Source of the DNA: Candidatus Omnitrophota bacterium
GTDB taxonomy: Bacteria > Omnitrophota > Gorgyraeia > JAZDFF01
Direction of reading: 5' to 3'
Length of the DNA stretch: 64,000 nt
NCBI GenBank assembly: GCA_043808095.1
Contig: JAZDFF010000011.1
Span: 48,030-112,029, forward strand
The translations under genes were made by a program, and so were the position numbers. The notes under the pieces are model-generated. The model was not told the origin of the DNA. It searched no databases and saw only the letters and a program-made list of their open reading frames with translations. Every line of letters begins with the position of its first letter. The stretch's first letter is position 1. Below are positions 1,383 through 57,142 of this stretch, piece by piece.

Positions 1383-1450
1383 TACCCCGACGCCCCGACG
1401 AAACGTCGGGGGTCGGGGTATCCCGACTGAAGCGAAGCGAAACGTCGGGA
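1383..1450. repeat. GC-rich nested hairpins of the CCCGACG-WWW-CGTCGGG family
   Basis: taccccgacgccccgacgaaacgtcgggggtcggggta is a roughly 17-bp-stem palindrome. A second hairpin, tcccgac...gtcggga, follows it. Confidence 0.7.
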
Positions 1451-4107: not shown

Positions 4108-5439
4108 TTATAGTATCGGCAGGTATTTATCTATCTCGTATTGGGTAACCTGGGCTTTATATTCATCCCATTCCATTTTTTTGTTGCGGATAAAATATGC
4201 AAAAACGAAATCGCCTAATGCCTTTTTTACTAACTCGGATTTCTCGGTTAGTTTTATCGCTTCTAGCAAATCTTCTGGCAATGATTTAATCCTGGCGCGC
4301 TGTCTTTCTTCTTCAGTCATTCTATAAATATTGTCGTTTGCTGGCTCTATTAACGGGTATTTCTTTTCTAAACCCTCCAGTCCTGCGGTTAACATCGCCG
4401 AGAATGCCAGATAAGGATTGCAGGCCGGGTCAGGTGCGCGGTATTCAATACGCGTGGATTTTTCTCTACCGGGCTTATACATGGGAATGCGTATCAGCGC
4501 AGAACGGTTCATCTGTGCCCAGCACAGATACACCGGCGCTTCATATCCTGGAACTAATCTCTTATAGGAATTAACCCATTGGTTAGTCACCGAGGTAATT
4601 TCCGGAGCATGTTTAAGAAGGCCTGATATAAAGAGTTTGGCAATTTTGGAAATATGAAATTTATCTTTCGGATCAAAAAAGGCATTTCTTTTACCCTTAA
4701 AAAGAGACATGTGCGTATGCATTCCCGAGCCGTTTATGCCGAATACGGGCTTGGGCATAAAAGTAGCATGCAGGCCCTTTTGTTGGGCGAACTCCTTGAC
4801 TACAAAACGATAGGTCATGACATTGTCCGCCATAGTAAGTGCATCAGTATAACGCAGGTCTATCTCATGCTGGCTGGAGGCTACTTCATGATGGCTGTAT
4901 TCTACGACTATGCCTAACCCCTCCAGGGCCATAATAGTCTCCTGCCGCACATCCTGGGCAAAATCTAAAGGTGTCAGGTCAAAATATCCGCCCCTGTCCA
5001 AGACGATGGTGTTCTTAGGATTATTAAAATAAAAATATTCCAATTCCGGGCCGACATAATAGGTAAAACCCATCTTTTTTGCGCGCGCCAGGTTCTTTTT
5101 TAATACGTAGCGGGGGTCTCCTTCAAAAGGTTTGCCATCAGGGGTATAGATATCACAAAACATGCGGGCAACGTTACGGCCTTCTTTTGCCTCCCAGGGT
5201 AAAAGGGCAAAGGTATCCGGATCTGGCTTAGCAATCATGTCCGACTCTTCTATGCGGGCAAAACCCTCAATGGATGAGCCGTCAAATCCCATACCGTCTT
5301 CTAACGCCCGGGGCAATTCATCAATAGTCAAATCCAGGCCTTTTAAAAACCCCAATACGTCGGTAAACCAGAGCCGGATGTGTCTTACCTGCTTCTGTTT
5401 TACAATCTTCATTATCTCTTGTTTAGATCTTGAAGCCAT
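4108..5439 (-). CDS. glnA: glutamine synthetase type I
   Basis: 443 aa, with GS beta-grasp and catalytic-domain motifs (GFDGSS, HTHMS, NRSALIR). Confidence 0.9.
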   Translation of the reverse strand: MASRSKQEIMKIVKQKQVRHIRLWFTDVLGFLKGLDLTIDELPRALEDGMGFDGSSIEGFARIEESDMIAKPDPDTFALLPWEAKEGRNVARMFCDIYTPDGKPFEGDPRYVLKKNLARAKKMGFTYYVGPELEYFYFNNPKNTIVLDRGGYFDLTPLDFAQDVRQETIMALEGLGIVVEYSHHEVASSQHEIDLRYTDALTMADNVMTYRFVVKEFAQQKGLHATFMPKPVFGINGSGMHTHMSLFKGKRNAFFDPKDKFHISKIAKLFISGLLKHAPEITSVTNQWVNSYKRLVPGYEAPVYLCWAQMNRSALIRIPMYKPGREKSTRIEYRAPDPACNPYLAFSAMLTAGLEGLEKKYPLIEPANDNIYRMTEEERQRARIKSLPEDLLEAIKLTEKSELVKKALGDFVFAYFIRNKKMEWDEYKAQVTQYEIDKYLPIL

Positions 5440-6406: not shown

Positions 6407-6500
6407 TAATGAGCAGACGACTTACGGAACGAAAGTGCGACGCCCTATTTCGCTAAAGCTTCCTACTACGCTAAAGCTTCGTAGGACAAGTCGTAGGGCT
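6407..6500 (-). promoter_or_regulatory. conserved structured 5' leader element, copy A (SD-proximal CTCATTAATGGAG plus an ACTTACG/CGTAAGT hairpin)
   Basis: Sense strand reads ...cgtaagtcgtctgctcattaatggagataactATG. It is homologous to 14548-14640 and 33515-33600. Confidence 0.55.
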
Positions 6501-6745
6501 GTTTCCGAGACCTTGGCGAAGGAAAACGTAAGTCGTAGCTCCGACGATACGTCGGAGCGCCTGCGCCTGCCTACTGGCAGGCGAGCATCCATACCGAAAA
6601 ACCGAGCTTCAAAACCTATGTACATAGTTTTGGCGGGTTTATCCCGTTACACCCAGAAAGCCCCGGTCTTAAGACTGGGATAAAATGGCAAATTAAAATT
6701 AACCATAGAAAATCCCCGTCCTTTATTGACAGGGTGTAATGGGGC

Positions 6746-10907: not shown

Positions 10908-11060
10908 ATCTAACCCTCCCTCAATGAGCCCGCCATTGATGCAGTGGCGGGCGATTTGATCCCGCCCTTTTGGATATATAAAGATTGGGGTTAACAAACC
11001 AAAAGGGCGGGACAAATTCGGACAGCAATTTACGTTCGCTTCGCTTCGTAAATTGCGTCT

Positions 11061-11222
11061 TCATATTATCTTCTCAAACATATCCTTGCTCACACCGCAT
11101 TCAGGACAGACCCAGGTATCCGGCAAATCACTAAAGGCTGTCCCCGCGTTTATGCCATTGTCCGGGTCACCAACCGCAGGGTCATAGATATAACCGCAAA
11201 CTGTGCAACGATATTTTTCCAT
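11061..11222 (-). CDS. rubredoxin (53 aa; below the ORF-track size cut-off)
   Basis: Hand translation gives [53 protein letters not shown], a classic CxxCG...CPxCG rubredoxin. Confidence 0.85.
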
Positions 11223-11389
11223 TGCCTTAACTCTCCTTATTTACGCCTATCTCTTTTTCTTCTTTGCCTTTTTCTTTGGTTTTTTTACTCCGCAGCCACA
11301 GCATCCCATCTCTACACCTCCTCAAATGACCCCCTGCTGTTTCGTTTTGTTTCGCTTGCTTCACAAAACGGAACAAAACGACAGGGGGG

Positions 11390-11640
11390 AATTTGATCCC
11401 GACGTATCGTCGGGGTAAGTGGTTCAACTTCGCTCTGGTTCGACTTTGCTCTGGTTCGACTTTGCTCACCATTCGCCCTGAGCAAGCTCGCCAGAGGCGA
11501 GCGCGTCGAAGGGCTCACCATCCTTCGAATGCATTCGACTACACTCAACATTCGTCCTGAGCTTGTCGAAGGACGAACCATCCTGAGCGCAGTCGAAGGA
11601 TTCGGCCTAATCCCGACGTATCGTCGGGATGGCCTCACTT
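11390..11640. repeat. composite MITE-like element bounded by identical 20-nt palindromes (ATCCCGACGTATCGTCGGG), carrying GTCGAAGG/CCTGAGC repeats
   Basis: The terminal hairpins lie at 11396-11415 and 11610-11630. The interior has duplicated ctctggttcgactttgct and an ~75-nt block whose reverse complement recurs at 31880-31955. The right terminal hairpin encodes the last 7 aa of FprA. Confidence 0.65.
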
Positions 11641-12812
11641 ATCTTCTGGGCAAAATCCTTTCCAAATTCATAACAGCGCTTTAGCTCAACATCATCCGGA
11701 ACATATTTAAAGCTTAATCCGGACTGAGCTAATTCTATTCCCGACTCTTTAAAAATATCCTCGATTTCCTTAACAGCACCACCTGACCAGCCGTAAGAAC
11801 CGAAGGCAGCTGCAATTCTTTTCTGCGGACGCAGGCCCTTTAAAAATTCCAGGAACCCGGCAATAGAGGTGAGCATATCATTATCATGTGTCGATGAGCC
11901 GATGACAAAGCCTTTGGCATCCAACATCTCTTTGATTACCTCAGTGCGATCAGACGTGGCGATGTCAAAAAGTTTTACATCCAATCCCGCAGCTATAATG
12001 CCCTCGGCTATGTATCTAGCCATCTTTTCGGTTGCGCCCCACATCGTCTCATAGACAATTACGGCTTTGGGCTTAGTCTCATTCTTTGCCCACGATACAT
12101 ATGCATTTACAATCTTGGCCGGGTCTTTGCGCCAGATAATCCCGTGGCTGGGTGCGATCATCTTAATAGGGATATTCATCTTCTGCACTTCTTCGATCTT
12201 TTTTAAGACCAGGCTGCTTAACGGCCAAAGGATATTACCATAATATTTTGCCGCCTCATCCATCAGCGCAGCAGAATCTACCTCATCGTCAAATCTCTGG
12301 GAGGTAGCAAAATGCTGGCCAAAGGCGTCATTGGGCAAAAGAATCGCGTCTTCAACCAGATAACTAAACATACTATCCGGCCAATGCAACATAGGTGCCT
12401 CAAGAAAGGTTAAAGTCTTCTTACCTAATTTTAATTTGTCTTTGGTCTTTACAACTTGAAAATCCATATCTAAATAATAATGTTTAAATAAACCCTCTTT
12501 GCACTTTGCTGTGCCAAAGACCTTGGCCTTGGGACACAGTTTCAATATTGCCGGAAGCGCGCCTGAATGGTCTATCTCTACGTGGTTGGCAATGATATAG
12601 TCGATTTTTTCAGGTGCAATAATCTGTCTGATTCTTTCAATCATCTCTTCGGCAAAAGGTCCATAGACAGTATCCACCAAGGCAATCTTGTCATCTACTA
12701 TAAGATAGGCATTATAGGTGGTTCCTCTTTTTGTGGTATAGGTATGCCCATGGAAGTTCCTGACGTTCCAATCAATAGCGCCTACTCAATGAACCTGTTT
12801 ATAAATTTCCAT
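11607..12812 (-). CDS. flavodiiron protein (rubredoxin:oxygen/NO oxidoreductase, FprA) with an in-frame TGA at codon 9
   Basis: A metallo-beta-lactamase-like diiron domain (HVEIDH...) is followed by a flavodoxin domain. The ATG at 12810-12812 is preceded by GAAGGGG. TGA at 12786-12788 replaces the conserved Trp of the YWVGA motif. The ORF track therefore begins at a GTG at 12680. Confidence 0.7.
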
Positions 12813-12826
12813 AATTACCCCTTCTT

Positions 12827-13553: not shown

Positions 13554-14297
13554 TTAATGGAAATATCCTGCTACAAGTTTGCCTAAGAAAAATCCAGTTG
13601 CGCAGGATAAAACACCAATCAACAAAGTTTCTAAACCGCTTAAAAGCCAGTGAATCTTAGTAATTCTAGACTTGATTGTTCCTAAAATAAAAAGGAAGGT
13701 CAAAACCGATATCGCAGAAACAACCAAAGACTCTCTTAAGCCATCAAAGAGAAAAAATGGCAGAATTGCCGGCAACGCTCCAACTAGAAATGAACCCGCA
13801 GAGATAAATCCGATCTCCAAAGGGTTATCAATTAATCCCGGGCTGATACCGATTTCCTCCTGGACCATGAATTTAAGCCAACACTCTTTGTTAGCGGTAA
13901 TACGCCTTACCGCGATTTCCTGTTCGTCTTTTGTAAAACCCATCTCGCCAAAGATTTCTCTTATCTCTTGGGTTTCTTTTTGCGGATCCTCTTCTATTTC
14001 TCTTATTTCCCGCTCAATCTGATTCTCGAAAAAATGCTTCTGGGCTTTTGTAGATATATAAGAACCGAAGAATATTGCCACCGCCCCGGCTACTATCTGG
14101 ATTAAACTAGCTAAAATTATCTTATTCTTTGCAATCAAAGAAACCGAAACACCCGCAATAAAAGAGACCGTTGTAACCAGGCCTGTATCAATGGCATAGA
14201 CCACGTCTCTGATAATCCTTCCCTTGGCGGTATGCCAGTTTTCGCCGTGCCAGTTTTTTAGTCTTTGTTCTAAGGGGCTTCTAATTAGTTGCGCCAT
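13554..14297 (-). CDS. VIT1/CCC1-family iron/manganese transporter
   Basis: The VIT-family topology is present: cytoplasmic helical segments between TM helices, with conserved E/D-rich loops. The start at 14297 has a GAGGGGG SD, whereas the ORF-track M at 14336 lacks one. Confidence 0.6.
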   Translation of the reverse strand: MAQLIRSPLEQRLKNWHGENWHTAKGRIIRDVVYAIDTGLVTTVSFIAGVSVSLIAKNKIILASLIQIVAGAVAIFFGSYISTKAQKHFFENQIEREIREIEEDPQKETQEIREIFGEMGFTKDEQEIAVRRITANKECWLKFMVQEEIGISPGLIDNPLEIGFISAGSFLVGALPAILPFFLFDGLRESLVVSAISVLTFLFILGTIKSRITKIHWLLSGLETLLIGVLSCATGFFLGKLVAGYFH

Positions 14298-14310
14298 AGC
14301 TAACCCCCTC

Positions 14311-14547
14311 CTATATGGCAATAACCTCTTTAACACTTGGCACTTCTTGTTTAATCAATTTCTCAATGCCCATCTTCAGAGTCATTGAACTCATCGGACA
14401 ACAGCCGCAGGCACCGGTAAGTTTTACCTTTACCGTCCCGTCATCTGTTACCTCAACAAGCTGGACATCCCCGCCATCAGCCGCAAGCATGGGCCTGATC
14501 TTATTTAAGGCTGCCTCTACTTTTTCTTTCATGTTTTCCTCCTTCAA
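14311..14547 (-). CDS. NifU-like (Nfu C-terminal domain) Fe-S cluster protein
   Basis: 78 aa: ...GGDVQLVEVTDDGTVKVKLTGACGCCPMSSMTLK... Confidence 0.8.
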   Translation of the reverse strand: MKEENMKEKVEAALNKIRPMLAADGGDVQLVEVTDDGTVKVKLTGACGCCPMSSMTLKMGIEKLIKQEVPSVKEVIAI

Positions 14548-14640
14548 TGAGTAGACAACTTACGGAGTTCGAAGAACGACGTAAGTTGTAGGACGAAGTC
14601 CGTCTGCGAATTCCTGCCTGCCGGCAGGCAGGGAACCCAG
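14548..14640 (-). promoter_or_regulatory. conserved structured 5' leader element, copy B
   Basis: + strand reads ctccttcaatgagtagacaacttacggagttcgaagaacgacgtaagttgtagg...ccgtctgcgaatt...gcctgccggcaggc. Confidence 0.55.
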
Positions 14641-21616: not shown

Positions 21617-21702
21617 TTGAAGACTCCTTCAATGAGCACATAAATTACGCCTGTCTGGCCTCAGACAGGGACTTTTGCGCCTTTGCGGTATAAAAAAAGT
21701 AT

Positions 21703-27569: not shown

Positions 27570-27656
27570 CTTAACCTCCGATTTGCTGTATTTTTTCTTC
27601 TGTCTGCAAATCGTCCCGAGTCCCGACGTAACGTCGGGACGAGGGACAATTATACC

Positions 27657-28696: not shown

Positions 28697-31600
28697 TTAC
28701 TCTTTTTTCTCTTTCTTTTCAAGAATTATTTTTGCAGCAATCTCGGCAGGAACCTGGTTGTAGCGGTCAAAATGCATGGAACAACTGGCCCGGCCGCTGC
28801 TTAGGGAGCGGAATGCCGCCGCATAACCAAACATCTCGGCAAGAGGCGCCTCAGCATAAATAATCTTCTGATTGGCCTTAGTTTCTATATTTAGGATTTT
28901 GCCTCTGCGCTGGCAGATATTGCCCACGATATTATTCGCATATTCCTCGGGGGTAGTAACCTCAAAAAGCATGCACGGCTCCAGTAATATCGGATTTCCC
29001 TTCATAAAAGCCTCTTTAAAACCAAGGATTGCCGCCATCCTGAAGGCCAATTCCGAAGAATCTACCTCATGAAAAGAACCGTCCACCAGATCAACCTTTA
29101 CGTCCACAACCGGAAATCCTGCATACGCGCCTTTTTGTATCGCTTCTTTTACGCCTTTTTCTACTGCCGGGATAAATGACTTGGGAATCGCCCCGCCCCG
29201 TATACTATCGATAAATTCCAGGCCCTTGCCTGATTCACCCGGTGCAATCTCCATAACCACATGTCCGTATTGGCCCCTTCCGCCTGATTGTTTGATGTAT
29301 TTGCCTTCGGCACTTGCCTGGCTGGTTATAGTCTCTTTGTAGGCCACCTTAGGCTGGCCTACAATAGCATCAACATTAAATTCGTTTTTGAGCCTGTCAA
29401 CGATAATTTCAAGGTGCAGCTCTCCCATGCCGGTTAAAAGGGTCTCTTTAGTCTCAAGGTCTGACTGGACAATAAATGTCGGGTCCTCTTCCGCTAGCCT
29501 GCCCAGGCCTCTGCCTAATTTGTCCTGGTCCTGGCGTGTCTTGGGTTTGATGCTTAAGGACACTACCGGTGTGGCAAACTGCATCTTCTCAAGCAGGATG
29601 GGATTATCAGAGTCGGAAAGAGTATCTCCGGTTGAGGTATTACTCAGGCCTACGGCCGCGACAATCTCTCCGGCAAAGGCGTATTCGATATTCGTCTTCT
29701 GATTTGCATGCATGCGCACGATGCGCGATACCCTTTCTTTTTTATCCTTGGTGACATTTAAGACATATGAACCGGCAACGAGCACACCGGAGTAAATCCT
29801 TACATAGACCAGGTTCCCGATATGCGGGTCAGCCTGTAATTTAAAGGCTAAGGCACAAAACGGCCCTTTATAATCAGGCAGTCTCTCCAGGGGCTTTTCA
29901 GGATCCTGCGGGTCGCTTCCTTTTACGGGAGGTAAATCTTTTGGCGACGGCAGGAAATTTAGTATGGCATCAAGCAGTTTCTGCACGCCCTTATTTTTAA
30001 GCGCGGTCCCGCATACCACGGGAACCATCTTATTTGCAATCGTTTCCCTTCTTATCGCCGCTATCAAATCTTGCTGGCTAATTGAACCTTCGGCCTCAAG
30101 GTGTTTCTTCATTAAAGCCTCGTCAAGGCTAGCCACCTTTTCAACAATCGCATGACGAGTCTGTCGGGAAATTTCTTTAAATTCTTCAGGGATATCTTCT
30201 ACCGTAAACTCTTTTCCCTGGGATTCTTCATTAAAAATATAGGCCTTCATTTCTAATACATCGATAACACCGCGGAAATTTGCCTCTGCCCCCATCGGGA
30301 TTACAACCGGAGCCACATTAGCAGCCAGACTATGCTCCATGCCTTTTAAAACGGCGAAATAATCCGCGCCCAGCCGGTCCATCTTATTAATAAAGGCAAT
30401 CTTGGGAACGTTGTATTTGTCTGATTGGCGCCAGACTGTCTCTGTTTGAGATTCCACGCCGTTTACGGCATCAAAAACCGCGACTGCACCGTCTAAAACG
30501 CGCAAGCTCCTTTCAACCTCCACAGTAAAATCAACATGGCCTGGAGTATCGATGATGATGATACGATGGTCTTTCCAGAAACAGGTGGTTGCTGCGGCAG
30601 TAATAGTAATGCCTCTTTCCTGTTCTTGTTTCATCCAGTCCATCTGGGCCTTGCCTTCATGGACCTCGCCGATTTTATGGGTCTTTCCGGTGTAAAATAG
30701 AATCCTTTCGCTTAAAGTAGTCTTACCCGCATCAATATGGGCTATGATCCCGATGTTCCTGGTTCTGTCGATGTCAATTTCAGGAGTGGCAGATAGAAGG
30801 TCTTTGGGTTTATGCTCCCGGATTTCTTCTGCTTCGGGGGTAGGCTTCGCCTCCTCTTCTTTAGCAGGCGCTTGTTTCTCGGCTGGTTTTTCTTCAGCGG
30901 GCTCTTTTATGGCTGGAGGCTCTTCGACTGGCTCTTTAATTTCCTCAGCAGGCTTTTCTTCAGGAACTACCGGAGGAGGCTCTTCAATTTTGGGACTAGC
31001 AGGCGGTTCTTGCGGCAGTGCCTCCTTTACTTCCTGCTCTTCGGATCTTATTGGTGAACCTGCCTCGATTAACTGCATCTTCAGGCGGATTCTTTCCTCA
31101 TTTACCGCCTTAAGCTGTTTTTCGGCCGTCTCTAATTCTTTCTCAAGTTCGGTATACTCCTCATTCAACCTCTCAAAATCTTTCTTGGGAACCCATTCGC
31201 TCTCTTTCTGCTTTCTCTCAAGCGAATATGCGGTATCTGCGTGTTTTTGCGCCTCCTCAGTGAGTTTTTCTATCTTAAGGTTTAACTTCAGGATATCATT
31301 AGCCAGTTTACGGTTTTGTTCTTCGGATAATTTTAGTTTTTCTTTAAAAAATACCAACTCCTGATTTAAATTTACGTTTTTATCAAAGACAGCTAATAAT
31401 TCCTTTCCCTTTTCTCTTAATTTTTCGGAAACCTCAGCGCTCTCCTGTTTGACCTTACCTAATAACTCTTCGTCCTTTTTAACCCATTCATCGCGTTTGA
31501 TTAATTTCTCTAATAAATCCGCCTTGGCATTTTGGACTTCCTCGAGTTCTCTTTTCTCTGCCTCCTGAGCCAATCTTAAATTCTCAATCTCGTTTCTTAA

Positions 31601-31771
31601 GGAAGATGCCTCTTCCTGCAGAGTCAGTATTCTTTGGGCCCGCGTATCCATCTCCTGCGGCCGGGGAATACGAGTGGCCTTCTTCTTTACTGGGGGCTCG
31701 CTGCCCAGTAATAGCCCATAACCAATAAGCACAATTCCGCCAAATGCTAAAATAACAATCGCAATAAACAT
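28697..31771 (-). CDS. elongation factor G paralog with a ~330-aa N-terminal extension (TM helix, coiled coil, Pro/Glu/Lys-rich linker)
   Basis: The C-terminal ~690 aa is full-length EF-G: [17 protein letters not shown] and NKMD motifs, then domains II-V. The N-terminus starts with [23 protein letters not shown], followed by E/K heptad coiled coil and PEPK-like repeats. Confidence 0.8.
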
Positions 31772-31859
31772 ATTTATTTTGGTTTGTGGAGCCCACCTTA
31801 ATGTTTATTTTATAAGGCCCCCTCCCGAGGCAACGCAGCATTCAGCCCCGGGTTCCCCC

Positions 31860-31975
31860 TCGACTTGGCTCTGGATGGTTCGCGAGAGATGGTGAGTCCT
31901 TCGACGCGCTCGCCTTTGGCGAGCTTGCTCAGGGCGAATGGTGAGCAAAGTCGAACCAGAGCACCGCCGAACTAA
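31860..31975. repeat. inverted partial copy of the MITE-like element
   Basis: gatggtgagtccttcgacgcgctcgcctttggcgagcttgctcagggcgaatggtgagcaaagtcgaaccagagc is the reverse complement of 11445-11520, with 2-3 mismatches. Confidence 0.75.
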
Positions 31976-33514: not shown

Positions 33515-33600
33515 ATTTCCCTCCTTTTAATGAGCAGACGACTTACGGAGTCGAAGACGACGTAAGTCGTAGGCCTAAAAGGCCGTCTGCGAATTAATCC
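33515..33600 (-). promoter_or_regulatory. conserved structured 5' leader element, copy C
   Basis: + strand reads ccctccttttaatgagcagacgacttacggagtcgaagacgacgtaagtcgtaggcctaaaaggccgtctgcgaatt. Confidence 0.55.
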
Positions 33601-39822: not shown

Positions 39823-39885
39823 TCTATGATACTCCAAACAAAAACCAAATTCAAGCCAGGAAAATATAGGAGTGAATTTATCCTG
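39823..39885. repeat. direct repeat, left copy, flanking the ICMT cassette
   Basis: tatgatactccaaacaaaaaccaaattcaagccaggaaaatataggagtgaattta is ~80-85% identical to 40768-40830. Confidence 0.65.
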
Positions 39886-39990
39886 AGCCCTTCGGCAAGC
39901 TCAGGGTAAACTGAGTCGAGGTATTTCGCAACTGGCTATGCTCGAAAGAGGCTGAAAAACTATACAAAGAAATACTTAATATCTAATGAA
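39886..39990. repeat. MITE-family fragment (CCTGAGCCCTTCGGCAAGCTCAGGGTAAACTGAGTCGAGG)
   Basis: Its reverse complement occurs at 43172-43215. Confidence 0.65.
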
Positions 39991-43139: not shown

Positions 43140-43430
43140 GGGGGTGGGCAGGCGCAACAAAGTATCCTTCGACTCAGTTTACCCTGAGCTTGCCGAAGGG
43201 CTCAGGGTGGATTCTCCGCGCCCAAATGGTTAGTCTATCGAACCATAAATGACAACGCCCTTCGCTATCCAAGGCTTACTTTACCACATAATAAAATGGT
43301 GAGCAAGCCCTGAACGAAATGAAGGGCGCGTCGAACCACTCCCCTTCGTGGACGACCTTCGCAACACTTCGACAAGCTCAGTGCAAGCTTTTTTGGAGGA
43401 ATTTAAGAGCTATTGTTTAAGTCAGGAAGC
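43140..43430. repeat. MITE-family repeat block (GTCGAAGG / CCCTGAGC...GCTCAGGG hairpins)
   Basis: tccttcgactcagtttaccctgagcttgccgaagggctcaggg ... ggtgagcaagccctgaacgaaatgaagggcgcgtcgaacc. Confidence 0.65.
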
Positions 43431-56849: not shown

Positions 56850-56854
56850 TGTGT

Positions 56855-56980
56855 TCTCTCTACTGGCCTACGAGGTTAGCTGTCGGGCTCGGGTCGAGCA
56901 ACCCTAATCTGATATTACTAGATATTCGCCCCAAGATCACAACTTGATCAGATTCTTGGGTTCCCCGCTATCTTTTTAGG
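56855..56980 (-). promoter_or_regulatory. cyclic-di-AMP (ydaO/kimA-type) riboswitch in the kdp leader
   Basis: Minus strand reads ...gcGGGGAACCcaag...CGACCCGAGCCCGACAGCTAACCTCGTAGGCcagt. This matches the conserved ACCCGACAGCUAACCUCGUA 3' signature of the ydaO class. Confidence 0.65.
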
Positions 56981-57142
56981 TTTGAAATATCACCCAAAAA
57001 GAGATTAAGCTTATTGAAATTAAATATAGCGCAATTAATCCTTTTGTCAAGTTTGATCACTCGCTAGTTAAGCAAGATGTTCACGCTCAAAACGCCCTGA
57101 AGTGACTCACCATAAAATACTCTCTCTAAACAGGCAGGACAA

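Follow-up and report, generated by a model that had tools for sequence, protein, structure and literature searches.

Short hairpin repeats between the FprA and rubredoxin genes of an Omnitrophota genome: a probable nested mosaic that encodes the end of FprA

Organization of the FprA-rubredoxin spacer

We analyzed a 64-kb window of DNA (hereafter, the window) from a metagenome-assembled genome (MAG) of Candidatus Omnitrophota, and in particular the 384-nt spacer between the gene for the A-type flavoprotein FprA and the rubredoxin gene. The genes of this region are on the minus strand. The spacer holds two copies of a short palindrome (pal), a block of small hairpins between them (the units), a long hairpin, and a small open reading frame (ORF). 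An earlier prediction, made from the DNA letters, described the block and its palindromes as a single miniature inverted-repeat transposable element (MITE). The features, with coordinates in the window, are as follows.

11061..11222, minus strand: rubredoxin gene, the downstream partner of FprA
11247..11309, minus strand: small ORF of 20 codons (MGCCGCGVKKPKKKAKKKKR-stop), with the Shine-Dalgarno sequence GAGGAGG at 11317-11323
11321..11396, minus strand: long hairpin with its core at 11329-11389 and the base TCAAAT/ATTTGA; its 3' arm adjoins the Shine-Dalgarno sequence of the small ORF
11396..11415, unstranded: left palindrome (palL), the positional homologue of the single hairpin TCCCGAC-AGAAAAC-GTCGGGA of the related locus L136
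11416..11609, unstranded: inner block, in which TGAGC-N2-3-GTCGAA hairpin units of the two orientations form a nested mosaic
11420..11467, unstranded: tandem array, 3 x TGGTTCGACTTTGCTC, with minus-orientation units TTCGAC-TTT-GCTCA (Tandem Repeats Finder and motif scan)
11474..11516, plus strand: unit a, with the stem GCCC/GGGC and the loop TGAGC...GTCGAA
11550..11578, plus strand: unit b, ATTCGTCC-TGAGCTTGTCGAA-GGACGAAC, missing from the second copy of the block
11580..11601, plus strand: unit c, ATCC-TGAGCGCAGTCGAA-GGAT
11602..11641, minus strand: gene-end hairpin module TAAGTGA-GGCC-AT-(CCCGACG ATA CGTCGGG)-AT-TA-GGCC, with palR at its apex
11610..11630, unstranded: right palindrome (palR), which encodes IPTIRRD and has a loop of 3 nt on a perfect stem of 9 bp
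11607..12812, minus strand: FprA gene, whose tail (...KISEAIPTIRRD-stop) enters the repeat; Pfam domains ODP, Lactamase_B, and Flavodoxin_1

Pal is a hairpin of 19-21 nt with the form (A)TCCCGACG-WWW-CGTCGGGA(T). The block is bounded by the same palindrome at both sides, as had been predicted: ATCCCGACGTATCGTCGGG is exact at 11396-11414 and at 11610-11628, and only base 20 differs (G vs A). The two palindromes are direct copies of each other, not inverted ones. If we search the window for the 17-nt core of pal with up to three mismatches, then we find 9 strand-matches at 5 sites, where 0.02 would be expected.

The units are short stems that close a conserved loop, TGAGC-N2-3-GTCGAA, and most of them are in inverted doublets that pair with each other. 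In the predicted fold, the two arms of a doublet pair TTCGAC..GCTCA with TGAGC..GTCGAA. The predicted hairpin motifs are present inside the block: GTCGAAGG and CCTGAGC occur three times each on the plus strand in 11477-11599 (motif scan). The inner block also holds minus-orientation motifs (TTCGAC-TTT-GCTCA), and units of the two orientations alternate throughout 11420-11601, as they do near 39.9 kb and 43.2 kb. The tandem duplication was said to be present twice; the array is real (a 16-nt unit, TGGTTCGACTTTGCTC, at 11420-11467 with 93% matches), but Tandem Repeats Finder gives it 3.0 copies. The nesting goes further, as an extra hairpin (GCTCGCC-AGA-GGCGAGC, 11486-11502) lies in the loop spacer of unit a, and unit b is nested with a degenerate minus-orientation unit (11534-11548) on one side and unit c on the other. 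The extremities of the block are inverted units that match imperfectly over about 13-15 nt (TTCRACTKCGCTC), in contrast to the flanking palindromes, which are direct. In the predicted fold, the whole inner block is enclosed by the pairing of TAAGTG (11636-11641) with CACTTA (11417-11422). A 326-nt stretch has a predicted RNA fold energy of −150 kcal/mol, which is far below that of shuffled sequences (z = −8.6 for RNA from the minus strand and −8.7 for DNA of the plus strand).

Searches against known families returned little for this interval. Rfam at gathering thresholds, run on the whole window, placed no family in the spacer (the sole match was a c-di-AMP riboswitch at 56851-57021), and a relaxed search (E ≤ 10) of 11200-11800 gave only chance-level miRNA matches. 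On the minus strand between FprA and rubredoxin, no site resembles an intrinsic terminator, in which a G+C-rich hairpin precedes a run of T, and a tRNA scan found no tRNA in the window. Pfam reported no family for the three ORFs that overlap the repeats, a protein-word search with the repeat-derived ORF gave no candidate having three words in common, and a literature search for peptides of the PELVEG/LSLSKG type gave unrelated papers only. A blastn search against plasmids found no match, and none of the papers in the full-text collection that was searched has the DNA strings of the pal and unit motifs. By inspection, we also rejected hammerhead, kink-turn, and tRNA-like readings of the TGAGC...GTCGAA loop, as the core residues do not fit.

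Other copies in the window

Within the 64 kb, pal is present at 5 sites and units are present at 4 loci. Every one of these is intergenic. About 60 ORFs of the window are ordinary chromosomal genes. The copies beyond the FprA locus, none of which has a strand assigned, are as follows.

1386..1449: palindrome-family hairpin cluster, CCCGACG-AAA-CGTCGGG (at 1394) and CCCGAC-N15-GTCGGG; intergenic
6540..6556: variant palindrome TCCGACG-TAT-CGTCGGA, in a 339-nt spacer upstream of a DUF169 gene
27622..27638: stand-alone palindrome CCCGACG-TAA-CGTCGGG, which forms the tip of a longer hairpin in the gap between PHO4 transporter and PhoU-like genes
31807..31972: second copy of the block, inverted and without the palindromes, between a STAS-PilZ gene and an EF-G-like gene
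39874..39924: unit pair, with one unit within the loop spacer of the other; intergenic
43164..43385: further units, of which 43164-43214 is an inverted copy of 39874-39924; intergenic

The units at the FprA locus form a block of 140-185 nt whose second copy lies 20 kb away. An inner segment had been predicted to recur there in inverted orientation, and this holds at the alignment level: 11438-11527 is complementary to 31883-31972 at 92-93%. With gaps allowed, the homology of the block carries on to 11574-11600, across an indel of about 46 nt. The doublet that is common to 31883-31972 consists of unit a and the minus-orientation unit that precedes it. The block at the FprA locus can be described as the element at 31807-31972 plus unit b, which is nested in it, plus a small palindrome, both of which are missing from the second copy; the two copies differ at both ends as well as by the internal indel. 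The related pieces that had been noticed near 39.9 kb and 43.2 kb were also confirmed, as 39874-39924 and 43164-43214 are a 51-nt inverted pair (90% identity), with more units at 43300-43380. As pal occurs alone elsewhere and the second copy of the block lacks it, pal is an independent, free-standing module.

The C terminus of FprA

On the minus strand, the FprA reading frame ends with ...AQKISEA-IPTIRRD (in its longer form, ...FAQKISEAIPTIRRD). The codons ATC CCG ACG ATA CGT CGG GAT are exactly the 21-nt hairpin at 11630..11610, and the stop codon TAG (11609..11607) lies just outside it. So, the right palindrome does provide the final seven codons of FprA, as had been proposed, but not the stop. 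The last seven residues (IPTIRRD) are encoded by the repeat, and the repeat-encoded stretch probably extends to ten (SEAIPTIRRD).

We compared the FprA gene to 80 orthologous loci from metagenomes (L002, L136, L276, and so on are our labels for the comparison loci) and its tail to those of 120 homologous proteins. IPTIRRD is not the terminus of any of the 120 proteins or of any of the readable FprA 3' ends among the 80 loci. FprA homologues often terminate with ...KI or ...KIK. In the closest relative (L002/L123, with 95% amino-acid identity in FprA), the protein ends with DFASKMV and rubredoxin starts 15 nt further on. Because the tail is not seen in homologues and the closest relative has a different end, we conclude that the FprA tail derives from repeat DNA, and the comparison of homologues agrees with the original prediction. 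The FprA protein is 100% identical to one that is encoded in a MAG labelled "Candidatus Omnitrophota bacterium". A dN/dS of 0.067 between the window and L002 indicates that purifying selection has acted on the gene.

How did the repeat come to be translated? palR is at the apex of a larger gene-end hairpin module (11602..11641), a further 3' repeat of this clade that has not been described before. In L124, L188, L244, L177, and L276 we again find the 13-mer TAAGTGAGGCCAT with a hairpin and ATnnGGCC behind it. In these loci the TAA of the module is a stop codon, namely of rubredoxin in L124 and L188 and of other genes in L244, L177, and L276. The inner stem of the module is usually AACTTATG...CATAAGTT in other loci, whereas in the window it is pal. 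Here the 5' TAA of the module is out of frame for FprA (AAG A/TA AGT GAG GCC), and the TAG in its 3' foot (11607-11609) is used as the stop. Since the TAA at the head of the TAAGTGAGGCC-AT... module is out of frame, FprA is translated on to the TAG at its foot. The loss of TA from ...AAG ATA TAA GTGAGG would produce the present frame. The claim that the C terminus was redefined by a repeat thus stands, but it had been attributed to an element landing inside the gene, and a frame offset into a 3' module that was already there is more likely.

Two side observations concern the same gene and module. First, in the broader form TAAGTGAGGCC-AT-AACTTATGGAGC...CATAAGTT-AT-nn-GGCC, the module is present in L124, L188, L244, L177, L276 (two sites), and L175, as well as at 11631-11641 in the window; its TAA is the stop codon at least in L124 and L188 (rubredoxin) and at one of the L276 sites (pyrH). 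Second, FprA has an in-frame TGA at codon 9 (12786-12788, VH-stop-VGAIDW) where all homologues have tryptophan, and the NCBI protein begins downstream of it, at MDWNVRNF. Either a recent nonsense mutation or an error in sequencing may account for the TGA. Recoding of TGA was ruled out because long intact ORFs in the window use translation table 11.

The spacer in related loci

Rubredoxin follows FprA in about 45 of the 80 orthologous loci, and in about 33 of those, the spacer is just 3-24 nt. Given the short spacers of the relatives and the 384 nt of the window, the expansion of the spacer is derived. Spacers of loci that contain the small ORF range from 108 to 467 nt.

The most informative relative is L136, whose FprA is 76% identical to that of the window. 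There the FprA stop codon is followed by 16 nt, the hairpin TCCCGAC-AGAAAAC-GTCGGGA, TCAAATTTG, a CCCC...GGGG hairpin, ACTCATTTGAGGAGGTG, and the small ORF. From palL through the leader of the small ORF, L136 and the window match at 126 of 148 aligned positions, and L136 does not have the block of units. As palL and the long hairpin are conserved in a locus without the block, palL is an old structure of the spacer and not the end of an element, which contradicts the idea of palindromic termini. L136 is the only one of the 80 FprA loci with a pal-like hairpin. A similar pairing of pal with a long hairpin is found between pyrH and frr in an Omnitrophota MAG (locus L276).

The small ORF encodes a CxxC motif and a poly-lysine tail behind a strong Shine-Dalgarno sequence. 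It was not called by gene callers and has no match in NCBIfam. Homologues (MSCGxCGPKKPKKKAKKKK-stop) are found in the spacers of L136 (~4147-4212), L159, L176, L180, L184, and L199. Because it is present in the spacers of relatives, we consider the small ORF to be a conserved gene and no part of the repeat.

Other changes are evident around these genes. In L002, the spacer between the FNR gene and FprA is 210 nt (2698-2908), as compared to 14 nt in the window (12813-12826), and it carries repeats of the ACGCAGAT type and a unit-like hairpin (CCCCGAGCGAAGTCGAGGGG). Turnover therefore goes both ways, since here it is L002 and not the window that carries the hairpin. Relative to L002, the window also has an extra gene of 260 amino acids between NifU and FNR (13554-14336, with a weak match to TIGR00267), and the gene of 73 amino acids that L002 has between rubredoxin and rubrerythrin (4276-4497) is shortened or diverged in the window (10921-11064, a 47-amino-acid ORF with about 110 nt missing). 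In L198 (2100-2420), a small ORF that looks GIY-YIG-like on inspection of its translation is inserted between FprA and rubredoxin and is preceded by the hairpin ACTTACG-GAGCGAAGCGAA-CGTAAGT. The spacer between these two genes seems to be especially prone to insertions.

Pal and the units in other genomes

We scanned one genome per species (596 Gb) for pal with the pattern TCCCGACGWWWCGTCGGGA and viral contigs for units with the pattern CCTGAGC-N2-3-GTCGAAGG; the counts are lower bounds, and the chance expectations for both scans are our own estimates. The pal pattern is present in at least 119 stretches, while we would expect about 17-35 by chance in the whole 596 Gb. By record titles, the matches listed include 24 from Omnitrophota, about 40 from Patescibacteria, 10 from Planctomycetota, 7 from Elusimicrobiota, 4 from Ratteibacteria, 14 from MAGs labelled as Gammaproteobacteria, and others. 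Among the matches listed, 64% of the loops are TAA or TTA.

Pal is nested at the apices of hairpins: at 10 of 121 listed sites, the stem continues for at least 5 bp into the flanks, whereas when flanks are swapped as a control, 0.3% of the cases do so. In Planctomycetia, Shapirobacteria, Patescibacteria, and Omnitrophota, pal is at the apex of a repetitive extragenic palindromic (REP) sequence of the TGTC/CGTC type, yGTCATTGCGAG...CGAAGCAATC, which is also found without pal and with a loop of 4-5 nt instead.

By inspection, pal also occupies several unusual positions. It is in the place of the anticodon arm in tRNA-like fragments (L257 at 3827, L285 at 4661 and 4876, L287 at 6325, L302 at 699, and L277 at 2258 and 2677), which ARAGORN did not call as tRNAs. 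In MAGs from the candidate phyla radiation and others (L206, L210, L256, L290, and L311), it lies in variable helices of 16S and 23S rRNA genes or in the flanks of these genes. In an Omnitrophota MAG (L205, at 4245 and 4998), two paralogous pilin-like genes have a common leader of about 110 nt with pal in it, and the pal loop is flipped between the two copies (ATA vs TAT). This suggests inversion of the loop of the palindrome, and it makes the orientation of pal a weak marker. We had considered whether L205 might be a REP-associated tyrosine transposase (RAYT) gene flanked by two pal; this was ruled out, as these pals are in the leaders of the duplicated pilin-like genes.

At least 120 stretches fit the unit pattern, in viral contigs with GC contents between 31% and 71%. 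These copies have a strong preference for YT in the spacer, and CCGTTCGY is conserved as their 5' flank. In the closing stem, the pair beside CC/GG is formed in 83 of 94 copies (CG in 37, UA in 23, UG in 15, and GC in 8). The covariation score of the stem is 0.251, versus 0.183 for shuffled alignments (0 of 500 shuffles reach the observed value) and at most 0.167 if the stem is slid. As the closing stem covaries and there are many copies, the units are a real family.

A nested mosaic of short repeats

These observations are probably best explained if the interval is a nested mosaic that resembles REP sequences, bacterial interspersed mosaic elements (BIMEs), and REPINs, with at least three independent kinds of short hairpin repeat in the spacer that runs from FprA through the small ORF to rubredoxin. 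The kinds of module would be pal, the units, and the long hairpin just upstream of the ribosome-binding site of the small ORF. The ancestral order may have been that of L136: the FprA stop codon, a single pal hairpin, the long hairpin, the small ORF, and rubredoxin. The block of units would then have come to lie beside pal in this lineage, where pal is now on either side of it. Three routes could have led to the two copies of pal: the hairpin that served as the target was duplicated, recombination took place at pal, or pal inserted a second time and the copies were then homogenized. We suppose that the modules spread as selfish DNA and insert at or into existing hairpins, presumably as single-stranded DNA and by means of an enzyme that acts in trans, by analogy with REP/RAYT and IS200/IS605. 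In the mRNA of the operon, the modules would fold into a very stable multi-hairpin structure behind FprA. Like REP/BIME sequences in E. coli, it could act as a buffer against decay or make FprA partly independent of the genes that follow. Such a role as a 3' stabilizer at the RNA level is possible but unsupported.

Several points weigh against this interpretation. First, the proposed ancestral state is shown by one relative only (L136), and several orders of events for palL and palR fit L136, L276, and L244 alike. Second, the unpaired GTAG or CGTC tag that characterizes the described REP super-families is missing from both pal and the units, and no transposase, integrase, Y1, or recombinase family matched any of the approximately 60 ORFs of the window. 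Third, the orientation of the units and of pal relative to neighboring genes has no clear bias (gene calls are crude in the high-GC viral contigs), and the lack of bias for the units leaves the RNA-level role unsupported. Fourth, the out-of-frame TAA as the explanation for the read-through of FprA is itself something that we infer; as the FprA of L175 (72% identical) is in the same frame here (KISEAI...), some of the tail could be native. Finally, as the sequence is from a MAG, the repeats and the in-frame TGA could include assembly errors.

Beyond the mosaic itself, we tentatively suggest, as a speculation that we think has only a small chance of being right, that pal and the TGAGC-YT-GTCGAA unit are ultra-small mobile hairpins. 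They would be exchanged horizontally between Omnitrophota, Patescibacteria, Elusimicrobiota, Planctomycetota, and other groups, and would insert at the apices of existing DNA hairpins via an enzyme that is not yet linked to REPs. Possible targets include other REPs, terminator-like stems, hairpins at gene ends, variable helices of rRNA, and tRNA-like sequences. If so, the duplicated palindrome around the FprA block would be the footprint of a hairpin-targeted insertion.

Alternative explanations

The alternative that survives best, though we still consider it unlikely, is that the block of units is itself mobile, and that it arrived either by recombination at pal, which would act like the core of an att site, or by staggered cuts at the foot of the extruded hairpin, which would duplicate the 19-21 nt palindrome as a target-site repeat. 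In its favor, all 19 nt of the direct repeats agree, and there is just one pal at the homologous place in L136. Moreover, the sequence downstream of palL resembles one side of a single ancestral hairpin, and so does the upstream flank of palR together with its foot. However, 19-21 bp is unusually long for a target duplication, the AT/GGCC foot of palR is missing at palL, and no recombinase was identified among the ORFs of the window. Also, given the flipped loops of the L205 paralogs, the orientation of pal is a weak marker.

A second possibility is closest to the original prediction: a non-autonomous transposon of about 235 bp (a MITE or a palindrome-associated transposable element, PATE), with the palindromes as its ends, that was mobilized by an IS200/IS605-type TnpA and inserted in the 3' end of FprA. 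Y1 transposases do act on hairpin ends, the same palindrome is found at both sides of the block, the extremities of the block form an imperfect terminal inverted repeat, and the spacer is longer than in relatives. Against this, the palindromes are direct, single ones are found at other places in the window and in many phyla, none accompanies the second copy of the block, and palL belongs to the conserved order of pal, long hairpin, and small ORF in L136, which lacks the block. Furthermore, the ends of IS200/IS605 elements are two different subterminal hairpins rather than one palindrome repeated, and there is no TnpA or TnpB among the ORFs of the window. The idea of a single composite MITE with palindromic termini is therefore not supported, and we find a transposon of this kind quite improbable.

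Third, the interval could be a selected cis-acting RNA element of the FprA-rubredoxin operon (a 3' stabilizer, a processing site, or an attenuator) that grew in place by duplication. The very stable predicted fold, the G.U pairs in the stems of units, and the local tandem array are consistent with this, as is the long hairpin, which adjoins the Shine-Dalgarno sequence of the small ORF and is kept in L136. But at 31.9 kb the 90-nt module has the opposite orientation relative to transcription, the units are in both orientations within the block, most relatives have none of the block's structure, and there is neither a terminator-like site nor a match to an Rfam family. This explanation is doubtful, to about the same degree as the transposon.

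Finally, it is very improbable that short-read assembly misjoined or duplicated repeats and that the TGA and the odd C terminus are errors: repeats are hard to assemble in a MAG and the TGA at a conserved tryptophan codon was unexpected, but the genes on both flanks are collinear with relatives, the block is shorter than a read pair, and independent assemblies have the same read-through frame (L175) and the same order of pal, long hairpin, and small ORF (L136).

Relation to known repeats

We know of no RAYT gene for pal or for the units. In other respects, the interval is similar to the REP/BIME sequences of Enterobacteria and Pseudomonas, which are palindromes of 20-40 nt in the intergenic DNA of operons that form mosaics of alternating orientation. 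Like these, pal and the units are short, repeated, extragenic palindromes, and the units are clustered in alternating orientations. REP/BIME sequences also lie downstream of coding regions, may overlap the ends of genes and supply their stop codons, and form stable 3' hairpins; in particular, REP termini often give flanking ORFs their stop codons, and some REPs are inside ORFs (PMC3733652). On the other hand, pal and the units lack the GTAG/CGTC tag, and the same sequences span several phyla rather than one group of species.

REPINs are doublets of REPs that form hairpins (Bertels and Rainey, 2011, PMC3116915). Similarly, our inverted doublets of units pair, and the 90-nt doublet at 11438-11527 recurs at 31883-31972. 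In contrast to REPINs, the doublets here are nested and are interrupted by other hairpins, and no associated RAYT is among the approximately 60 ORFs of the window.

The super-family of CGTC-tagged REPs includes dRS3 of Neisseria and RPE-4/-6 of Rickettsia (Di Nocera et al., 2013, PMC3733652). As in these, pal has an 8-9 bp stem that starts with A-T pairs and a short loop (AT-CCCGAC-GWWWC-GTCGGG-AT), and unit b has a CCA tail. The nesting of pal in the apex of yGTCATTGCGAG...CGAAGCAATC also links it to TGTC/CGTC-type repeats. However, the tag that defines the CGTC and GTAG super-families is missing, the flanks of the 121 listed pal sites are variable, and the heads of the units are CAAC or CACC (in the window) or CCGT (in the viral copies).

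As for MITEs and PATEs, the block is likewise small and non-coding, with imperfect inverted ends and at least two copies. It differs from them in that it is flanked by the 19-nt palindrome as a whole and not by a short target-site duplication, the boundaries of the copies differ, the "terminal" palindromes are not the ends of the element, and no related autonomous insertion sequence is among the ORFs of the window. Elements derived from IS200/IS605 have distinct subterminal hairpins at their left and right ends, whereas the two hairpins here are identical to each other and belong to a module that is also found singly.

Another parallel may be the small dispersed repeats (SDR) of heterocystous cyanobacteria: Elhai and colleagues are said to have described these in 2008 as palindromic modules of about 20-27 nt that are nested in repeats or hairpins and whose presence varies between relatives. 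The tiny nested palindromes may be alike, but the sequences and the host phyla are not.

Other features of the window

Away from the spacer, three further features of the window are worth recording.

1845-1863, 6408-6426, 14546-14564, 21631-21649, and 33529-33547, all minus strand: CGTAAGTYGTCTRCTCATT motif, also found before the small ORF of L199 (~4180)
28697-31771, minus strand: EF-G-like ORF of 1024 amino acids, with EF-G domains from about residue 336
56851-57021, minus strand: c-di-AMP riboswitch (Rfam, 71.8 bits with a gathering score of 38), upstream of ApbE and kdpA-kdpB-kdpC-kdpD

The motif of 19-26 nt, CGTAAGTYGTCTRCTCATT(RAWGGAG), is immediately upstream of five start codons on the minus strand (5 matches vs 0.03 expected), and it looks like a clade-specific leader or ribosome-binding-site motif. 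The N-terminal 330 or so amino acids of the EF-G-like ORF have no match in Pfam; this extension may be a mis-chosen start or may be real.

Significance

A repeat-encoded tail on an oxidative-stress flavoprotein is a modest curiosity, as REPs that lie at the ends of genes and give them their stop codons are already documented. It is more useful that small hairpin modules outside Rfam recur across distant and mostly uncultured phyla, often nested within one another. The analysis also flags a conserved small ORF, with cysteines and a poly-lysine tail, that gene callers miss. If this recurrence is borne out, it would suggest that candidate phyla carry a very small class of selfish DNA that targets hairpins, and annotators would have a reason for the spurious ORFs and odd gene ends in such MAGs.

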